A stretch of 64,000 nt of DNA from Candidatus Harrisonbacteria bacterium (GTDB taxonomy: Bacteria > Patescibacteriota > Minisyncoccia > UBA6257 > 02-FULL-45-10c). The DNA is taken from the NCBI GenBank assembly GCA_016214655.1, contig JACROC010000005.1:131078-195077 (forward strand), in the 5' to 3' direction. Below the pieces are notes generated by a model. It had not been told where the DNA came from and searched no databases. It saw nothing but the letters and a program-made list of their open reading frames with translations. Both the position numbers and the translations under genes were made by a program. This document shows, one piece after another, positions 3,770 to 42,774 of the stretch (position 1 is its first letter; each line of letters opens with the position of its first letter).

Positions 3770-4152
3770 TTCCAAAGCCATTCTTTCCAATCTTTCGGCC
3801 AGCCGATGAACAGAAGCAGTGCAAGCGGAGCACCCCAATTTGCCCATCGTTCAACGAAATCCCAAACAGGCATTCCCACCAACGGACGCAAAAGCGCAGT
3901 CCAAAAACCCCAAAGAGTCATCCACAGAAGTGCAAGCGGCACTGGTCTAACTAAAACTAGAATTGCCAGCAAAACATCCATGACGCCAATCCAAAATAAT
4001 AAAGTTCCGGCAGTACCAGGATCCGCAACGCCAAATTGCGCAAACCAGCCAATCCAGTCTTTTTTGCCCTGCAAAGCAAACACGCCGTGACCTAAAAATT
4101 CTCCGGCCACAGCAACGCGTAATACCCACTCTGCCTTTTTGAATGAATCCAT
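3766..4152 (-). CDS. small 4-TM membrane protein (DoxX-like?)
   Basis: 128 aa, four hydrophobic helices, translationally coupled to the downstream gene. Confidence 0.45.
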   Translation of the reverse strand: MDSFKKAEWVLRVAVAGEFLGHGVFALQGKKDWIGWFAQFGVADPGTAGTLLFWIGVMDVLLAILVLVRPVPLALLWMTLWGFWTALLRPLVGMPVWDFVERWANWGAPLALLLFIGWPKDWKEWLWK

Positions 4153-4349
4153 GATTAAAAAATTGATTAATAATTTGTGACCTTTTATTATATTATATCA
4201 CTTTATTAAAAAAAATTCTCATCCCCAATAAGAACAAAATAATTGAGGTAATTGCAGAAAGCAGGCAATAAAGACAAAGCGCTTTTAATATAAAAACTTG
4301 TACAAAGACAAACTACAAAGATACAAGAAAACCGGCCATGGTTACGTCT

Positions 4350-6596
4350 TTATAATCGATGCCTACGGAGAAGAATAGCGTTGACGGCTACAATAACCGT
4401 TGAAAGCGACATAAAAACTGCGGAAATCGCCGGCTGAAGCAGAATACCTTTTGATACCAAAACTCCGGCCGCCAATGGCAAAGCTATAAGATTATAACCG
4501 GTAGCCCAAAAAAGATTTTGGATCATTTTATTATAGGTCAGACGGGAAAGTTTAATAATTTTTACGATATCCCGGGGGTCATTTCTCACTAGAATAATCC
4601 CTGCCGATTCAATCGCCACATTAGTACCGGCGCCGATTGCTATTCCCAAATCCGCCTGAGTAAGAGCCGGGGCATCATTAATGCCGTCGCCAACCATAGC
4701 AACTTTTAAAGCACGCGATTGAAGCCGCTTAACTCGATCAACCTTATCTTCCGGAAGCACCCTGGCAAAATATTCGTCTATCTGCAATTCATTGGCCACC
4801 CAATGCGCAACTTCTTCGGAATCACCGGTAAGCATTGCCGTTCTTACTCCCAAATTTTTTAATTCTTTGACTGCTTCTTTGGATTCTTCCCGGATTATAT
4901 CCGCCAGCACAATAACGCCAGCCGGCTGATCTCCGATTATTACATAATTAATCGTTTTGCCTTGCCGGGCTAAATCCAAAATCTGAGATTTCAATTCCTC
5001 CGGAATTTCCGCTTTAAACTCTTTTAAAATCTTTTCTCCGCCAACCGCCACTGTAATACTCTTCACCACCCCCCTGACGCCCTTACCCGGCAATCTCTCA
5101 AAATTTTCTACCGGCAATAATTCCACCCCCAATCTCTCAGCTTCTTTGACTATCGCCTTACTGGCAAAATGCTCAGACCGATTATCCACTGAAGCGGCGA
5201 ATTGCAGCAACTGGTATCCGGCAGCCGGAATATCCGTCCTCCTGGGCATAGTAAATTGCGACAAAGCAAATTTAAATATAGGAAACTGCGGATTGGGAAT
5301 TATTTTATCTATGCCATACTCGCCCCTGGTAAGAGTTCCGGTTTTATCAAAAAGCACGACATCAATCTTACGGGCGGCTTCCAGCGCCAGTCTTTGCCGC
5401 ACCAACAATCCATTTTGCGCGGATTTTGTGGTAGATATGGAAGCCACCAGCGGAACAGCGAGGCCCAAAGCATGCGGACAGGCGATTACCAGCACGGCAA
5501 CAAAACGCTCTAAGGCGAAAATCGCTCCCGCCCCGACGAAAATCCAATACCAAAAAGAGGATAGTCCGCTGACAATCGCTATAATAGTCAGATAGAATGC
5601 GGCGCGGTCGGATAAAATTTGAATACGCGATTTAGACGCTTGCGCTTCTTCCACCAATCTCATAACTCCGGATAAAAATGTATTTTCTCCTATTTTAGTT
5701 ATCCGTACCTTGAGGCTGCCGTCGCCATTGATGGTTCCGGCAATTACTTCGTCATTTTTTTTCTTTGCAACCGGCTTGGATTCACCGGTAACCATGGCTT
5801 CATTAATGTCCGAACTTCCATCAATTATCATCCCATCCGCCGGAATTTTTCCGCCAGGCCTGACCAAAACTACATTATCAACCCTCAATTCACTAATAGG
5901 AACGATCTTGGTTTTATCGTTCTTCATTAATATCTCCGCGGTATCCGGCAATAATTTAGAAAGTTCTTTAAGAGCGCGCTGCGCTCCCTGCACTGACCGC
6001 ATTTCTATCCAATGACCCAAAAGCATTATGGTAATCAAGCTTGTCAGCTCCCAGAACAAAGTGCTTGGCTCACCGGTAATGGTACCTAGCCGAATTAAAA
6101 GAATTTGTAAAACACTGTAAATATACGCCGCCCAGATTGCAATGCCAATCAAGGTCATCATCCCGGGAAGGCGTCCCTTAACCTCCAGCCATGCCCCGCG
6201 CGTAAATATCCAGCCGCCATAAAAAAATACAATTGTACTCAGGGCAAGCTGAATATAATCAGAACCGAGAAATGCCGGAGCTTGCCAACCCAAAAATCTT
6301 GCAGGAAGTTCCGAATAAAGCACTACCGGAATAGTCAGGGCTAAGCTAATCCAGAATTTCCGCAAAAACATCTGAGTACTGTGCCCAGCATGTTTGTCCG
6401 CAATAGATTCAGCATCGACGGATTTCCCTTCTTTTCTCTCTGCGGGTACCAGCTTCATTCCGCACTCCGGGCAAAGACCCGGTTTTTGCCGCTGAATCTC
6501 CGGATGCATCGGGCAGGTATAAATTATCCCCTCAGACACCTCTTTATCTTCATTCGCCATCTGATTATTTTTATTTTCCATATTGCAACAATCCAT
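4350..6596 (-). CDS. heavy-metal (copper) translocating P1B-type ATPase
   Basis: DKTGTLT phosphorylation motif, GDGINDAP hinge, TGES actuator motif, and the TM metal site ACPHALGL (CPH). The N-terminus has TCPMHPEIQRQKPGLCPECGMKL, a Cys-rich metal-binding module. Confidence 0.9.
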   Translation of the reverse strand: MDCCNMENKNNQMANEDKEVSEGIIYTCPMHPEIQRQKPGLCPECGMKLVPAERKEGKSVDAESIADKHAGHSTQMFLRKFWISLALTIPVVLYSELPARFLGWQAPAFLGSDYIQLALSTIVFFYGGWIFTRGAWLEVKGRLPGMMTLIGIAIWAAYIYSVLQILLIRLGTITGEPSTLFWELTSLITIMLLGHWIEMRSVQGAQRALKELSKLLPDTAEILMKNDKTKIVPISELRVDNVVLVRPGGKIPADGMIIDGSSDINEAMVTGESKPVAKKKNDEVIAGTINGDGSLKVRITKIGENTFLSGVMRLVEEAQASKSRIQILSDRAAFYLTIIAIVSGLSSFWYWIFVGAGAIFALERFVAVLVIACPHALGLAVPLVASISTTKSAQNGLLVRQRLALEAARKIDVVLFDKTGTLTRGEYGIDKIIPNPQFPIFKFALSQFTMPRRTDIPAAGYQLLQFAASVDNRSEHFASKAIVKEAERLGVELLPVENFERLPGKGVRGVVKSITVAVGGEKILKEFKAEIPEELKSQILDLARQGKTINYVIIGDQPAGVIVLADIIREESKEAVKELKNLGVRTAMLTGDSEEVAHWVANELQIDEYFARVLPEDKVDRVKRLQSRALKVAMVGDGINDAPALTQADLGIAIGAGTNVAIESAGIILVRNDPRDIVKIIKLSRLTYNKMIQNLFWATGYNLIALPLAAGVLVSKGILLQPAISAVFMSLSTVIVAVNAILLRRHRL

Positions 6597-39926: not shown

Positions 39927-41001
39927 TTAATTTCGTAAAGAAAACCAAACCTCATTTAAAAGTCTCTCGCGTAACTCATAAGTGTTAGCATGAGACAAAG
40001 CGCCAAGATAAGATTGTAATGATTGTTCAAGTGTTATTTTAGTAATATATCCTAGGTTATATTCTTTGATGCGTTTCCGTATTTTTGTAAATATGCGATG
40101 TTTTGTCTTGATTCGTATCAACCGATACTTTGGAAATATCACATGGCCAAGAAAATCAATGCCTTGATGTAACTTACGAATTATGATTTTCTTTGGATGT
40201 AGCTCCAAAGCAAGTTTCGTCTCAAGAAACTCATTGATCTGCGGCAAAAATTTTTCTAAATAATCCTGATTTTTCGAAACAATAACAAAATCATCGGTAT
40301 AGCGAATATAGTATTTTACTTTTAACCTATGTTTCATAAACTGATCAAATTCGTTCATATAGATATTGGCGAAAAGCTGCGAAGTCAAATTCCCTATCGG
40401 AATACCTTGCGCGGCGATTCTACTCTCTCTCTCTCTCTCTCTCTCGGGCAAACGTCACGCTTTTATAACTTTCAATAATAGATTCCAGAAGCCAAATGGT
40501 GTCACTATCTTTGATACGCTTTTTGATGATGGAAAGCAGGGTTACGTGATCAACGCTGTCAAAAAACTTCCTAATATCGCATTTCAATATAAAGCAAGGA
40601 TTGGCGCCATTCTTACTGACCTTTCTCACTGCTCTTTCCAAAGCTTCCACGCCTCTATGAGTTCCGTAACCGATGCGACAGGAAAACGAGGTAGAAATAA
40701 AGGTCGATTCAAAAATCGGATTGATAATCGAGAAAATAGCATGGTGCAGAACACGATCCCGAACTACCGCTTTATGAATGTGCCGTTGTTTCGGATCCTG
40801 TATATAAAAACCGGTATATGGACCGTGTTGGTAAGTTTTATTTTTCAATTCTCGTTGAAGCTGAAAAATATTTTCCTCCAGATTCCATTCAAACCGAAGC
40901 GCATCAGATTTTTTCCGCTTATCGATTTTAAAAGCCTCCCAGGCTGAAAAAAGATTCTCCGATGAAATAATTTTTGTAAACAGATTTTTATAAATTTTCA
41001 T
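39927..41001 (-). pseudogene. DGR-type reverse transcriptase, split into two ORFs by a frameshift in a (GA)11 tract
   Basis: ORFs 40420-41001 and 39927-40451 are contiguous RT halves. The N-terminus is LFSAWEAFKIDKRKK, followed by KCDIRKFFDSVDH, GIPIGNLTSQLFANIYMNEFDQF (DGR hallmark) and the catalytic RYTDDFVIV. The downstream half is offset by 1 nt. Confidence 0.85.
40423..40445. repeat. dinucleotide microsatellite (CT)11C on the plus strand, which is (GA)n on the RT coding strand
   Basis: Read directly. It encodes the RERERERE at the junction of the two RT ORFs. Confidence 0.95.
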
Positions 41002-41015
41002 AAATAATTACCACT

Positions 41016-41366
41016 ATGGATGACTTCGATATACCAATCTTTAAAAAATCATATGAGCTCTATAAGACCTTTTACGGATATCGGCTCATGGTCTCCAAAC
41101 AAGATCGCTATACCCTGTGGCAGCGCTGTGAAAATACTATTTTGGATCTCTTGGAAAACATCTTATTGGCCAGCCAATTATCCAAAGAAGCTAAATTGCC
41201 GGCATTGGAAAAATCCAGCCTGAAATTGAATCTCCTTCGGATTCTCCTCAGGCTTTCCAAAGAAACCAAGGCAATCGACAATAAAAAATATCTTTACTTG
41301 GAAGAAATAATAGATGAAATAGGCAGGATGCTCGGCGGCTGGATCAAATCCACCAAAGATCGCTAA
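41016..41366 (+). CDS. avd: Avd-like accessory variability determinant (four-helix-bundle protein)
   Basis: 116 aa, basic and all-helical. It has the typical pattern IPIFKKSYELYKTFY...DRYTLWQRCENTILDLLENIL.A......LRILLRLSKE...IDEIGRMLGGWIK. Confidence 0.8.
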   Translation: MDDFDIPIFKKSYELYKTFYGYRLMVSKQDRYTLWQRCENTILDLLENILLASQLSKEAKLPALEKSSLKLNLLRILLRLSKETKAIDNKKYLYLEEIIDEIGRMLGGWIKSTKDR

Positions 41367-41368
41367 AC

Positions 41369-41400
41369 AAAACGCTCTCCAATTATTGGAGAGCGTTTTT
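41369..41400. terminator. bidirectional hairpin terminator between avd and the TR
   Basis: aaAACGCTCTCCaattattGGAGAGCGTTttt. Confidence 0.6.
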
Positions 41401-41416
41401 AGCGATGGGAGAAATG

Positions 41417-41535
41417 ACTTCCGAGAGGCACCGAGACCAATGTTGTTCCACCTGTTGTCATCCCAGTTGTTGTTGACGTTCAGGCCATTGCCGTCGAAGT
41501 TGCCCACATTGACGCGGTTGCCGTCCGACGTGACA
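41417..41535 (-). repeat. DGR template repeat (TR)
   Basis: 119 bp that align without gaps to 41952-42070. The TR reading frame carries 11 AAC codons (VTSDGNRVNVGNFDGNGLNVNNNWDDNRWNNIGLGASRK). Confidence 0.85.
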
Positions 41536-41821
41536 AATTTGCTCGCCCCCGTCTTTGGCACTGAAAGTCGAGGTTTGCTGTCGCCTAAGGCGACTTATAT
41601 CCTCTTCTTTCTGAATTTTATTTAGGAGCACTCCGATGTTCATCGGAGACCTCCGCTAGAAGCAAGCAAGAAGTTCTGTTCTCCATCTTTATTCACACGC
41701 TATCGCACTCCGTAGAGATGCGACACTCTGGTGACGTCTCAAAGATGAGACATCTTGCGGGATTAAACCGTGGCCTAATCTACATTAGCAAGATATTTAT
41801 ATTGTAATAAATTTGTAGAAA

Positions 41822-41861
41822 TAAAAAAAGAAGCCCCCGGCGCAAAAATCGCGCCGGAGGC
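41822..41861 (-). terminator. rho-independent terminator of the DGR target gene
   Basis: The minus strand reads GCCUCCGGCGCgauuuuuGCGCCGGGGGCUUCUUUUUUU. Confidence 0.6.
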
Positions 41862-41905
41862 TCAAGAGTTCAAGAGAGACAATCCCTCCAGAACTCAAAC
41901 TTCAT

Positions 41906-41945
41906 CCTTCGACTTCGCTCAAGATGACCCTGAGCTTGTCGAAGG
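41906..41945 (-). promoter_or_regulatory. two-part hairpin immediately 3' of the VR
   Basis: CCTTCGAC-aa-GCTCA-gggtcatct-TGAGC-gaa-GTCGAAGG (minus strand), starting 1-2 nt after the target stop codon. Confidence 0.5.
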
Positions 41946-41946
41946 G

Positions 41947-42774
41947 TCAGAACTTCCGAGAGGCACCGAGACCAAGGGAGCCCCCCCTGCCGTCATCCCA
42001 GCCGCGGAAGACGAACAGGCCATCGCCGTCGAAGAAGCCCACAACGACGCGGTAGCCGTCCGACGTGACATCCGTGGTTCGCGCATACCTCGTCGGGTTC
42101 AGATAGATGCCGTTTTTCCGGTAATAGAGAATGTCCTTGAGGACTTCCTCTACTGCGGTCGGCACCTCGTACCCTTGAGGCAGCATAGCCACTTGGTCCT
42201 GGTAGGTCTTAGACTCGGAGTTCGGAACGATCTCCAGAGGCATCAGATACCACCGGAACTTCGCGGTCAGCTTGGTTGCCCAGGTTTGCTGAGAATACCA
42301 CGAACTGGGCGCGTAGCTTGCGAACTTTGGCTGGCCGTTTTGCGGATGCAGCTCCTGCAAGTGGAGGATGGTGAGCGGTTTCCCGTTCACGTTCTCGAGC
42401 CCCAGAAACGCGAAGTGCGTTTCTTTGACTGTCTTGCCTTTGACGAGCGGGCAAGGGGCGTTGAGAACATCCTCTCCCCACGGGAACTCAGCCACTTCTC
42501 GGAGCTGCTTCTTGGTGAACTTCACGCTGTACAGCGCGGTCCACTCTTCCACTCCGAAGAAGTTCTTGCCCTGAATGGCGCGAACCACCTGGTGATTCGC
42601 CGAACCCGACGCTTTGCCGCGAAGCATGAACTCGGCTACGCGTTTCGCGTAATCCGGCTCAGCCCGCAAGCGAGCGAGGTGCTCGGTTGAGACTCCGTGA
42701 TCCTGGAGCGCTTTCAAGGTCGCTCCGACTTCTCCGTAACTGGCTTTCCAGAGACCGCCTGGGTTTGTGCTCAT
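41947..42774 (-). CDS. DGR target (variable) protein, 275 aa, with no signal peptide
   Basis: GC-rich ORF with AGGAGG 8 nt upstream of the ATG. The C-terminal 40 aa (VTSDGYRVVVGFFDGDGLFVFRGWDDGRGGSLGLGASRKF) are encoded by the VR. Confidence 0.85.
   Translation of the reverse strand: MSTNPGGLWKASYGEVGATLKALQDHGVSTEHLARLRAEPDYAKRVAEFMLRGKASGSANHQVVRAIQGKNFFGVEEWTALYSVKFTKKQLREVAEFPWGEDVLNAPCPLVKGKTVKETHFAFLGLENVNGKPLTILHLQELHPQNGQPKFASYAPSSWYSQQTWATKLTAKFRWYLMPLEIVPNSESKTYQDQVAMLPQGYEVPTAVEEVLKDILYYRKNGIYLNPTRYARTTDVTSDGYRVVVGFFDGDGLFVFRGWDDGRGGSLGLGASRKF
41952..42070 (-). repeat. DGR variable region (VR)
   Basis: There are 22 mismatches to the TR. 21 of them fall where the TR coding strand has A, and all 11 TR AAC codons are changed. 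The one exception is T->G (TGG->GGG). An invariant 3' block GGTCTCGGTGCCTCTCGGAAGT is shared with the TR. Confidence 0.85.

Follow-up and report, generated by a model that had tools for sequence, protein, structure and literature searches.

The stretch of DNA examined here, called the window throughout, comprises 64,000 nucleotides from Candidatus Harrisonbacteria bacterium (NCBI GenBank assembly GCA_016214655.1, contig JACROC010000005.1, positions 131,078 to 195,077 of the forward strand), and it carries a diversity-generating retroelement (DGR). The parts of this element are, in order, a target gene ending in the variable repeat (VR), the template repeat (TR), the avd gene in reversed orientation and the gene for the reverse transcriptase (RT). 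Their positions are collected in Table 1 together with those of the smaller features. The original prediction, which was made from the letters of the window alone, had placed the RT start at 41001 on the minus strand and the avd start at 41016 on the plus strand with a 14-nt gap between them, a hairpin between avd and the TR, and a TR in the sense of the target and the RT; all of these hold.

Table 1. Features of the DGR locus, with positions in the window and strand (+ or -)
Feature	Position	Strand	Basis or remark
RT, C-terminal piece	39927..40451	-	Open reading frame (ORF) list; RVT_1 profile positions 111-205, E=2.4e-12; 27-homologue alignment
(CT)11 tract, (GA)11 in RT sense, breaking the RT frame	40423..40444		Sequence; in-frame tracts in relatives
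RT, N-terminal piece	40420..41001	-	ORF list; Pfam RVT_1 profile positions 9-99; N-terminus MKIYKN aligns with homologue residue 1
Head-to-head RT/avd junction, 14 nt, AAATAATTACCACT	41002..41015		Sequence; gaps of -2 to +14 nt in relatives
avd (116 aa), accessory variability determinant	41016..41366	+	Pfam bAvd, E=1.6e-15; NCBIfam DivGenRetAVD, E=1.9e-21
Perfect 15-bp hairpin	41369..41399		Arms 41369-41383 and 41385-41399, 100% complementary
Linker 3' of the TR, 17 nt	41400..41416	-	UUCUCCCAUC (41413-41404) pairs with GAUGGAGAA (41687-41679) of the leader
TR	41417..41535	-	119-nt repeat with VR; mismatches nearly all at TR adenines
Structured TR-RNA leader, ~255 nt	41539..41794	-	RNAalifold, 29 loci; covariation
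Leader P5, two interior loops	41611-41563	-
Leader P4, stem-loop	41654-41625	-
Leader P3, long-range, 12 bp	41669-41658 with 41550-41539	-	Ends ~3 nt before the TR; 9 pairs covarying
Leader junction motif GAACUUC, invariant	41676-41670	-
Leader segment pairing with the linker, GAUGGAGAA	41687-41679	-
Leader P2, UACG loop	41735-41692	-
Leader P1	41790-41756	-
-10-like box TACAAT	41801..41806	-	TAnnnT at fixed distance in 26/26 evaluable loci
Intrinsic terminator of the target	41831..41863	-	Terminator scan; -28.7 kcal/mol, z=-7.4; compensatory changes in relatives
Inverted repeat, ~40 nt, directly 3' of VR and stop codon	41906..41945	-	-24.2 kcal/mol, z=-5.2
DGR target gene, 275 aa	41947..42774	-	ORF list; composition
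VR, 3' end of the target gene	41952..42070	-	Repeat with TR

The RT start codon, an ATG at 41001 (minus strand), has an in-frame stop three codons upstream. The C-terminal piece lies in a frame offset by 1 nt from that of the N-terminal piece, and it contains motifs 4 to 7, including IPIGNLTSQ and YTDD. The signature of the DGR clade of RTs ([ILV]GxxxSQ in motif 4, together with YxDD) is present as IPIGNLTSQLFAN and RYTDDF, both of them invariant in 27 intact homologues. The enzyme was placed in this clade by its homologues and gene context, without a tree; its match to retron models is weak, and its best database match is 70% identical. The avd gene starts with ATG at 41016 (plus strand), and its product scores 57.9 bits against Pfam bAvd, over the cut-off of 40, and 76.3 bits against NCBIfam DivGenRetAVD, slightly below the cut-off of 80. 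An exact look-up of this Avd found it absent from the databases, leaving no second assembly of the locus to compare.

The TR and the VR form a direct repeat of 119 nt with 82% identity. Twenty-one of their 22 mismatches (95%) fall on adenines of the minus-strand TR, the single exception being a T-to-G change, and the TR therefore has the sense of the target and the RT and is antisense to avd. These nearly pure adenine-specific differences indicate that the element has been active in the past. The VR (42070-41952) ends 3 nt ahead of the stop codon of the target ORF (41947-42774). The window thus holds the RT signature, a TR/VR pair, a VR at the 3' end of its target and an Avd; an intact RT frame is what it lacks.

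An RT repaired in silico was used as the search query for relatives. It retrieved thousands of homologues of ~349 aa at 70% identity or less, and those carrying names are Patescibacteria, the candidate phyla radiation (CPR). The comparison set consisted of 80 loci (L001 to L080) from species-representative genomes, all of them CPR/Patescibacteria metagenome-assembled genomes. In 73 of the 80, avd stands head-to-head with the RT and abuts it, with RTs that are only 46-66% identical; the remaining seven comprise two cut by a contig end, three without detectable avd, one with avd elsewhere and one with an avd remnant. Where RT identity is at least 53%, the start-to-start gap between avd and the RT runs from -2 (CATG) through 0 (CATATG) up to 14 nt, and the gap of the window is at the upper end of this range. 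The TR lies in RT sense just past the avd stop in 45 of the 50 loci in which a TR/VR pair was detectable near the RT, and the VR follows ~280-470 nt further upstream of the TR.

This order corresponds to architecture B3, written TR-(avd)-RT with the parentheses denoting the reverse strand, which makes up 90% of the CPR DGR set of Wu et al. 2018 (Nucleic Acids Res 46:11, PMC5758913). CPR bacteria account for a large share of all known DGRs. The window has the B3 order with its TR in RT sense, and it agrees with the CPR B3 elements of that study in host group and in how target/VR, TR, reversed avd and RT are ordered and oriented, so that the layouts are identical; it differs in that its RT is frameshifted and this very copy is not in the databases. 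The layout is ancient, conserved and already published, and it reflects no local rearrangement. The view that it is unusual, with which the original prediction had begun, is refuted by the relatives and applies only when the Bordetella phage prototype is the standard. In the searched sections of Wu et al. 2018 there is no reference to the distance between the start codons, to a TR-proximal hairpin or to a structured RNA upstream of the TR.

Several architectural variants occur inside the same RT clade. L036 (TR 1411-1529, avd 1018-1362, RT 4001-5035) has two VRs, and its TR unit and avd are inverted at a distance of 2.5 kb from the RT. The TR unit of L046 and L055 runs in the direction of avd and antisense to the RT, with the target downstream of the RT. 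L047 and L049 have lost avd or retain it in reduced form, and their TR is ~100 nt upstream of the RT. A second, distant DGR (RT ~37-44% identical) with co-directional genes was also seen, in the order TR-avd-RT in L005 (366-1907) and avd-TR-RT in L063 (7620-8990), indicating that two DGR types stand side by side in some CPR genomes.

The spacer between VR and TR is strongly conserved among relatives, even at RT identities of only ~55-65%. A TAnnnT hexamer occurs 10-16 nt from an invariant column in all 26 evaluable loci, with an upstream TG in 12 of them. This -10-like box predicts a start of the TR RNA near 41794, exactly where conservation begins. Downstream of this position, RNAalifold folded the 29 aligned loci into a leader of 59 pairs in nine helices, 49 of the pairs showing compensatory changes. 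By an independent count over this alignment, 94.6% of the cells are paired, versus 70% in column shuffles and 37-48% when the partners are slid by 1-3 columns, and there are 473 double-change cells versus 61-81 with slid partners. Read along the leader strand, the order of elements is P2, the segment pairing with the linker, GAACUUC, the 5' strand of P3, P4, the invariant A-rich single strand AAUAAAAUUCAG between P4 and P5, P5, the 3' strand of P3 and then the TR. The leader of the window folds to -67 kcal/mol on the TR strand versus -39 kcal/mol on the reverse strand, and many of its pairs are G-U. As the reverse strand folds far worse and G-U pairs are frequent, the TR strand is taken to be the transcribed one.

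With a sequence-only hidden Markov model (nhmmer), the leader was detected in the window and in 54 of its 80 relatives. Wherever a TR was mapped, the leader lies directly 5' of it, and it has the orientation of the TR in every locus where this was checked. In L036, the leader, TR, hairpin and avd are together inverted and 2.5 kb away from the RT, and in L046 and L055 the unit has the order avd - leader - TR - terminator and is antisense to the RT. As the TR is antisense to the RT in these three loci, TR and RT cannot share a transcript there. Rfam searches gave nothing at gathering thresholds over the whole 64 kb (no tRNA, rRNA or riboswitch), and between 41300 and 41960, with E values up to 10, only sub-threshold chance matches near the target terminator; the leader was unmatched and no RT-x motif appeared. 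The possibility that the leader is a 3' untranslated region (UTR) element of the target mRNA was also considered; it is ruled out by the intervening terminator and the -10 box, and the leader follows the TR, not the target, in L046 and L055. We strongly infer that the TR has a small RNA gene of its own, of ~430 nt, extending from ~41794 to ~41365 on the minus strand, and that this gene consists of a -10 box right after the target terminator, the ~255-nt leader, the TR, the 17-nt linker and the hairpin.

The linker appears to be tied to the leader. A scan of alignment A2 for more covarying helices found no linker helix; as the linker columns are poorly aligned, cognate and permuted leader-linker duplexes were compared instead. 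Over the 29 loci, the cognate duplexes have a mean of -10.2 kcal/mol versus -7.8 kcal/mol for the permuted ones, and none of 20000 permutations reached the observed value; three control segments of the leader showed no significant cognate advantage. The duplex of the window has -16.7 kcal/mol. The same comparison of the junction motif with the TR 3' end gave no cognate advantage (-3.1 vs -3.6 kcal/mol) and no covariation.

At the leader junction, CAGAACUUC (41678-41670) is the exact antisense of the VR 3' flank GAAGTTCTG (41944-41952), a match that runs beyond the TR/VR homology. Relatives have matches of 7-9 nt between junction and VR flank, and in one subfamily the sequence ACUGC fits the VR (GCAGT) better than the TR (GAAGT). 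This match may represent pairing of the RNA with its target at the site of initiation of mutagenic homing (IMH), a notion to which the covariation test gave no support.

Two nucleotides separate the hairpin, on the other side of the linker, from the avd stop, and 17 nt separate it from the TR end. Its folding energy is -29.3 kcal/mol (z=-7.4) for the plus strand and -28.7 kcal/mol (z=-8.6) for the minus strand, and A-runs and T-runs flank it on both strands, giving tails of TTTTT or TTTTGTTT; a simple terminator consensus scan did not list it. Hairpins with at least 9 pairs are present between TR and avd in 52 of 73 related loci (median 12 pairs, median z -2.6). They have unrelated stem sequences, loops of 3-6 nt, A-rich and T-rich extensions on both sides and no bulged bases, and the interval between TR and avd stop differs greatly in length among loci. 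In L055, a hairpin is found 3' of the TR even though the avd stop is at the far end of the TR unit, so the hairpin belongs to that unit and is not solely an avd terminator. In form it is a bidirectional intrinsic terminator, which would probably serve the avd mRNA on the plus strand and the TR RNA on the minus strand. RNAalifold found no conserved pairs in the 350 nt antisense to avd. Handa et al. (bioRxiv 10.1101/2023.10.23.563531) surveyed the 40 nt before and the 100 nt after the TR; in 207 of 278 DGRs, among them CPR ones, they found stem-loops shortly after the TR, which they described as putative Avd-binding elements. The idea that the hairpin stands in for the structured element used for priming found no support: the stems share no sequence and resemble terminators, and the conserved structured RNA is upstream of the TR.

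At the head-to-head junction, it had been proposed that the 14-nt gap has no room for promoters or Shine-Dalgarno (SD) sites, so that each promoter would lie inside the other gene. This is correct for the -35 elements: any -35 of RT or avd must sit in the partner gene, and with the 0-5-nt gaps of some relatives the -10 must do so too. However, candidate -10-like hexamers do fit into the gap of the window, namely AATAAT at 41003-41008 (plus strand), 7 nt before the avd ATG, and GGTAAT at 41012-41007 (minus strand) for the RT, and the lack of SD sites is nothing special in this genome, as only 6 of the 48 long ORFs of the window have an SD-like motif between -20 and -4. Good -10-like hexamers concentrate 5-24 nt upstream of start codons, with 19 in those bins versus 2 and 0 in the next two. 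The rarity of SD motifs and the closeness of such hexamers to the starts suggest that short or absent mRNA leaders are normal in this genome. A promoter consensus scan returned 4 sites versus 4.6 expected by chance, none of which accounts for RT or avd expression, and no promoter could be called from an alignment of 44 junctions. The conserved junction block GGTATATC is accounted for by the DIPI codons of Avd and tolerates synonymous change; on the RT side, the IYK codons have TAT or TAC.

The RT of the window is split into ORFs 40420-41001 and 39927-40451 by a frameshift within the (CT)11 tract, and the pieces match the two halves of RVT_1; this split had been overlooked in the original prediction. 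The frame would be restored by adding one unit or removing two, and both halves retain all residues that are invariant in the 27-homologue alignment. The tract is the only dinucleotide repeat of at least 5 units in the 64 kb. At the same loop of the RT, in-frame (GA)6-11 tracts occur in L022 (1865-1880), L024 (1233-1254), L043 (919-930) and L058 (4543-4562), all with checked ORFs; L013 has a (GA)n tract there (2534-2553) in an uninterrupted tblastn match, and P0010 has an RE repeat. In a more distant subclade (L045, L048, L060, L061, L067, L073 and L079), it is the first codons of avd that contain (GT)n or (CT)n. Altogether, 14 of the 17 dinucleotide repeats in 603 kb of related loci are in RT or avd, which occupy 19% of the bases (P about 3e-8). 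In the assembly the RT is out of frame, so either the element is currently off or the tract is mis-assembled. The pattern of tracts fits an on/off switch by slipped-strand mispairing, and the element may be a candidate phase-variable DGR; assembly error or decay is also possible. Simple sequence repeat contingency loci, such as the phase-variable Type III mod genes with (AG)n (PMC3498834, PMC5909438), likewise have a coding dinucleotide tract in which a one-unit change switches the frame. The tract of the window resembles them in occupying the same site in relatives with differing unit numbers, but it is known from one assembly and its relatives and not from variation within a population. In the literature searched, nothing connects DGRs with phase variation.

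The best-studied point of comparison is the DGR of the Bordetella phage BPP-1, whose RNA consists of 20 nt of avd, the TR and a 140-nt Spacer (Handa et al. 2018, PMC6182149; bioRxiv 10.1101/2023.10.23.563531). According to the latter work, the Spacer contains, in order, an Avd-binding UNCG stem-loop, a primer strand pairing with the TR 3' end and a stop-duplex strand pairing with sequence upstream of the TR; these are followed by a short stem-loop, unpaired A's, the "thumb ring", which is single-stranded, and a stem that binds the RT and has two interior loops. The cryo-EM structure supports cis-priming from a 2'-OH. The window and BPP-1 are alike in their adenine-specific TR-to-VR differences, Avd and RT. 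Both also have two duplexes that clamp the TR ends: the first involves the TR 3' end or its flank, and the second, 12-13 bp long, the bases immediately 5' of the TR. Further along that strand come a stem-loop, unpaired A's, a single strand and a long stem interrupted by two interior loops, and UNCG-type tetraloops are common to both RNAs. They differ in that all RNA elements of BPP-1 are downstream of the TR in a co-directional avd-TR-brt arrangement, whereas those of the window are upstream of the TR and avd is reversed. Structured RNA directly downstream of the TR, as in the phage, was not found in the window, where only the 17-nt linker and the terminator-like hairpin follow and no RT-10 match was obtained; at the same time, the TR of the window has its own promoter-like box. 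Duplexes joining both TR flanks to a common strand are present, in the form of P3 and the leader-linker duplex, with that strand upstream of the TR. These correspondences suggest, by analogy, that the leader is the functional counterpart of the phage Spacer, located upstream instead of downstream of the TR.

Retrons offer another parallel. Their msr-msd RNA is structured, serves the RT both as template and as cis-primer from an internal 2'-OH, and is encoded beside the RT gene; it is co-transcribed upstream of the RT and gives msDNA, not homing cDNA. The present element would share with them a structured template and cis-primer RNA next to its RT, and the two differ in that retrons have, to our knowledge, no TR/VR pair, no Avd and no adenine mutagenesis.

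Taking these results together, we put at roughly three in four the probability that the locus is an ordinary DGR of the CPR/Patescibacteria type, in B3 layout, with a separate TR RNA gene and a Spacer-like leader upstream of the TR. The earlier proposal that the TR RNA and the RT mRNA are separate transcripts, the former ending at the hairpin, is strengthened by the comparison, through the -10 box in 26 of 26 loci, the structured leader, the clade-wide hairpin and the antisense TRs of L036, L046 and L055; its second half stays at the level of a prediction, as do the transcription start site and the 3' end. This and several other points weigh against our interpretation: the leader structure was derived from the same alignment in which it was scored, which favours it over the slid controls, although the margin makes this concern minor; no promoter of RT or avd was identified by the consensus scan or the junction alignment; the assembled RT has a frameshift; the lack of covariation between the junction motif and the TR 3' end leaves no nucleotide that could be named as the priming one; neither in sequence nor by Rfam does the leader resemble the phage Spacer (RT-10 motif), so that the likeness is topological only; and the hairpin may be more than a terminator, with a second role such as Avd binding. 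In addition, no priority is claimed for the upstream leader. The accessible literature and Rfam contained no description of an autonomous TR gene with an upstream leader or upstream Spacer, of near-zero start spacing or of the repeat tracts, but Paul et al. 2017 (PMC5436926) was outside that scope and may already describe part of this.

A different account would place TR and RT on one minus-strand transcript, as in the phage, with the hairpin acting as an Avd-binding stem-loop or a leaky attenuator and the RT being translated from RNA that runs antisense through avd. Intrinsic terminators are seldom fully efficient, the two parts are on the same strand in 45 of 50 loci, and no independent RT promoter could be shown; the putative Avd-binding stem-loops reported downstream of the TR in CPR and other DGRs (bioRxiv 10.1101/2023.10.23.563531) would also agree with it. 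We nevertheless consider such read-through rather unlikely, as the hairpins are long perfect stems with A- and T-runs, without shared sequence or bulges, as the strand antisense to avd has no conserved RNA structure, as the TR unit is antisense to or remote from the RT in L036, L046 and L055, and as the transcript would collide with avd transcription. The hairpin might instead be the primer itself: the terminated 3' end would fold back, its U-run would pair with the A-run, and the 3'-OH would be extended into the TR. The A-run and U-run do lengthen the stem, so that a terminated 3' end would be paired 17 nt from the TR, and the 3'-OH of a nicked template RNA has been proposed as the primer in the phage DGR (Naorem et al. 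2017, PMC5703328). However, the conserved, covarying RNA is upstream of the TR and not in the hairpin, the linker is already engaged in a covarying duplex with the leader, the interval in which the hairpin lies varies widely in length, and cryo-EM favours 2'-OH cis-priming, making this a poor candidate with little chance of being right.

The split RT raises the question of whether the element is a decayed remnant, its RT a pseudogene and its layout without functional meaning. Its RT lies in two frames, and with its exact Avd on record nowhere else there is no second assembly for comparison. Decay is nonetheless improbable, since the break amounts to a one-unit change in a (GA)n tract whose counterparts in L022, L024, L043 and L058 keep the frame, every invariant residue is kept in both RT halves, avd, TR, leader and hairpins are intact, the TR/VR differences are nearly all at adenines, and the layout is common to 73 intact relatives. 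Finally, a recent inversion of avd, which had been set beforehand as the case that would overturn the original prediction, or an assembly artefact might have created the divergent pair. Nothing but the contrast with the gene order of the Bordetella phage speaks for this, and it is excluded, for practical purposes, by the same arrangement in 73 of 80 species-level relatives with RTs 46-66% identical and by the published B3 architecture.

Returning to an autonomous TR RNA gene with an upstream leader, we propose a mechanism that follows the phage by analogy. P3 and the leader-linker duplex would clamp the TR ends together; priming would occur in cis from the leader next to the TR 3' end; synthesis would stop at P3; and the RT and avd mRNAs would start in or beside the 14-nt junction, with very short leaders or none. 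The B3 DGR RNA might then be a circular permutation of the phage RNA, in which the Spacer, with its Avd- and RT-binding stem-loops, primer strand and stop duplex, has moved upstream into an autonomous gene of ~430 nt that cis-primes from its leader, leaving RT and avd free on separate, near-leaderless mRNAs, with the dinucleotide tracts perhaps serving as an on/off switch. With a Spacer upstream of the TR, nothing structured would be needed between TR and RT, and avd could be reversed. This complete model is tentative, and we would rate its chances at a little under even.

The target gene and its 3' flank have features of their own. The GC content of the target is 57-60% versus ~40% in the surroundings; its body without the VR has 57%, compared with 37% and 40% for RT and avd in the window, and the target genes of 41 related loci exceed RT and avd of the same locus by a mean of 13.7 GC points. 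The gene has a strong SD site, AAAGGAGG, of the kind found in only six of the 48 long ORFs, and its protein has no match in Pfam, NCBIfam or PDB. [quoted passage not shown] The adjoining part of the target 3' UTR (41865-41905) carries an array of (C)TTGA motifs with a period of ~8 nt. Within 90 nt after the VR, the motif occurs on average 3.4 times in L001-L080 versus 0.5 times in shuffles, with spacings clustered at 7-9, 15-18 and 24-25 nt. The array occupies the position of the IMH-proximal hairpin of the phage DGR, and it could serve in target recognition or protein binding.

In terms of its layout, then, the locus is one more CPR DGR of the published B3 type, and the claim that it is unusual should be dropped. 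What the comparison adds is a concrete candidate RNA of ~430 nt, from 41794 to ~41365, with covarying pairs, a promoter-like box before it, a terminator-like hairpin at its end and a structured domain upstream of the template. The current model of the DGR mechanism rests on one phage with its essential RNA elements downstream of the template, yet CPR bacteria hold many DGRs. If the analogy is true, the architecture seen by cryo-EM in the phage would be conserved but permuted, which would explain why avd can be reversed in B3 elements. Surveys limited to the 40 nt before and the 100 nt after the TR would miss the leader domain. The recurrent repeat tracts, in turn, suggest a way in which hosts might switch hypermutation on and off.

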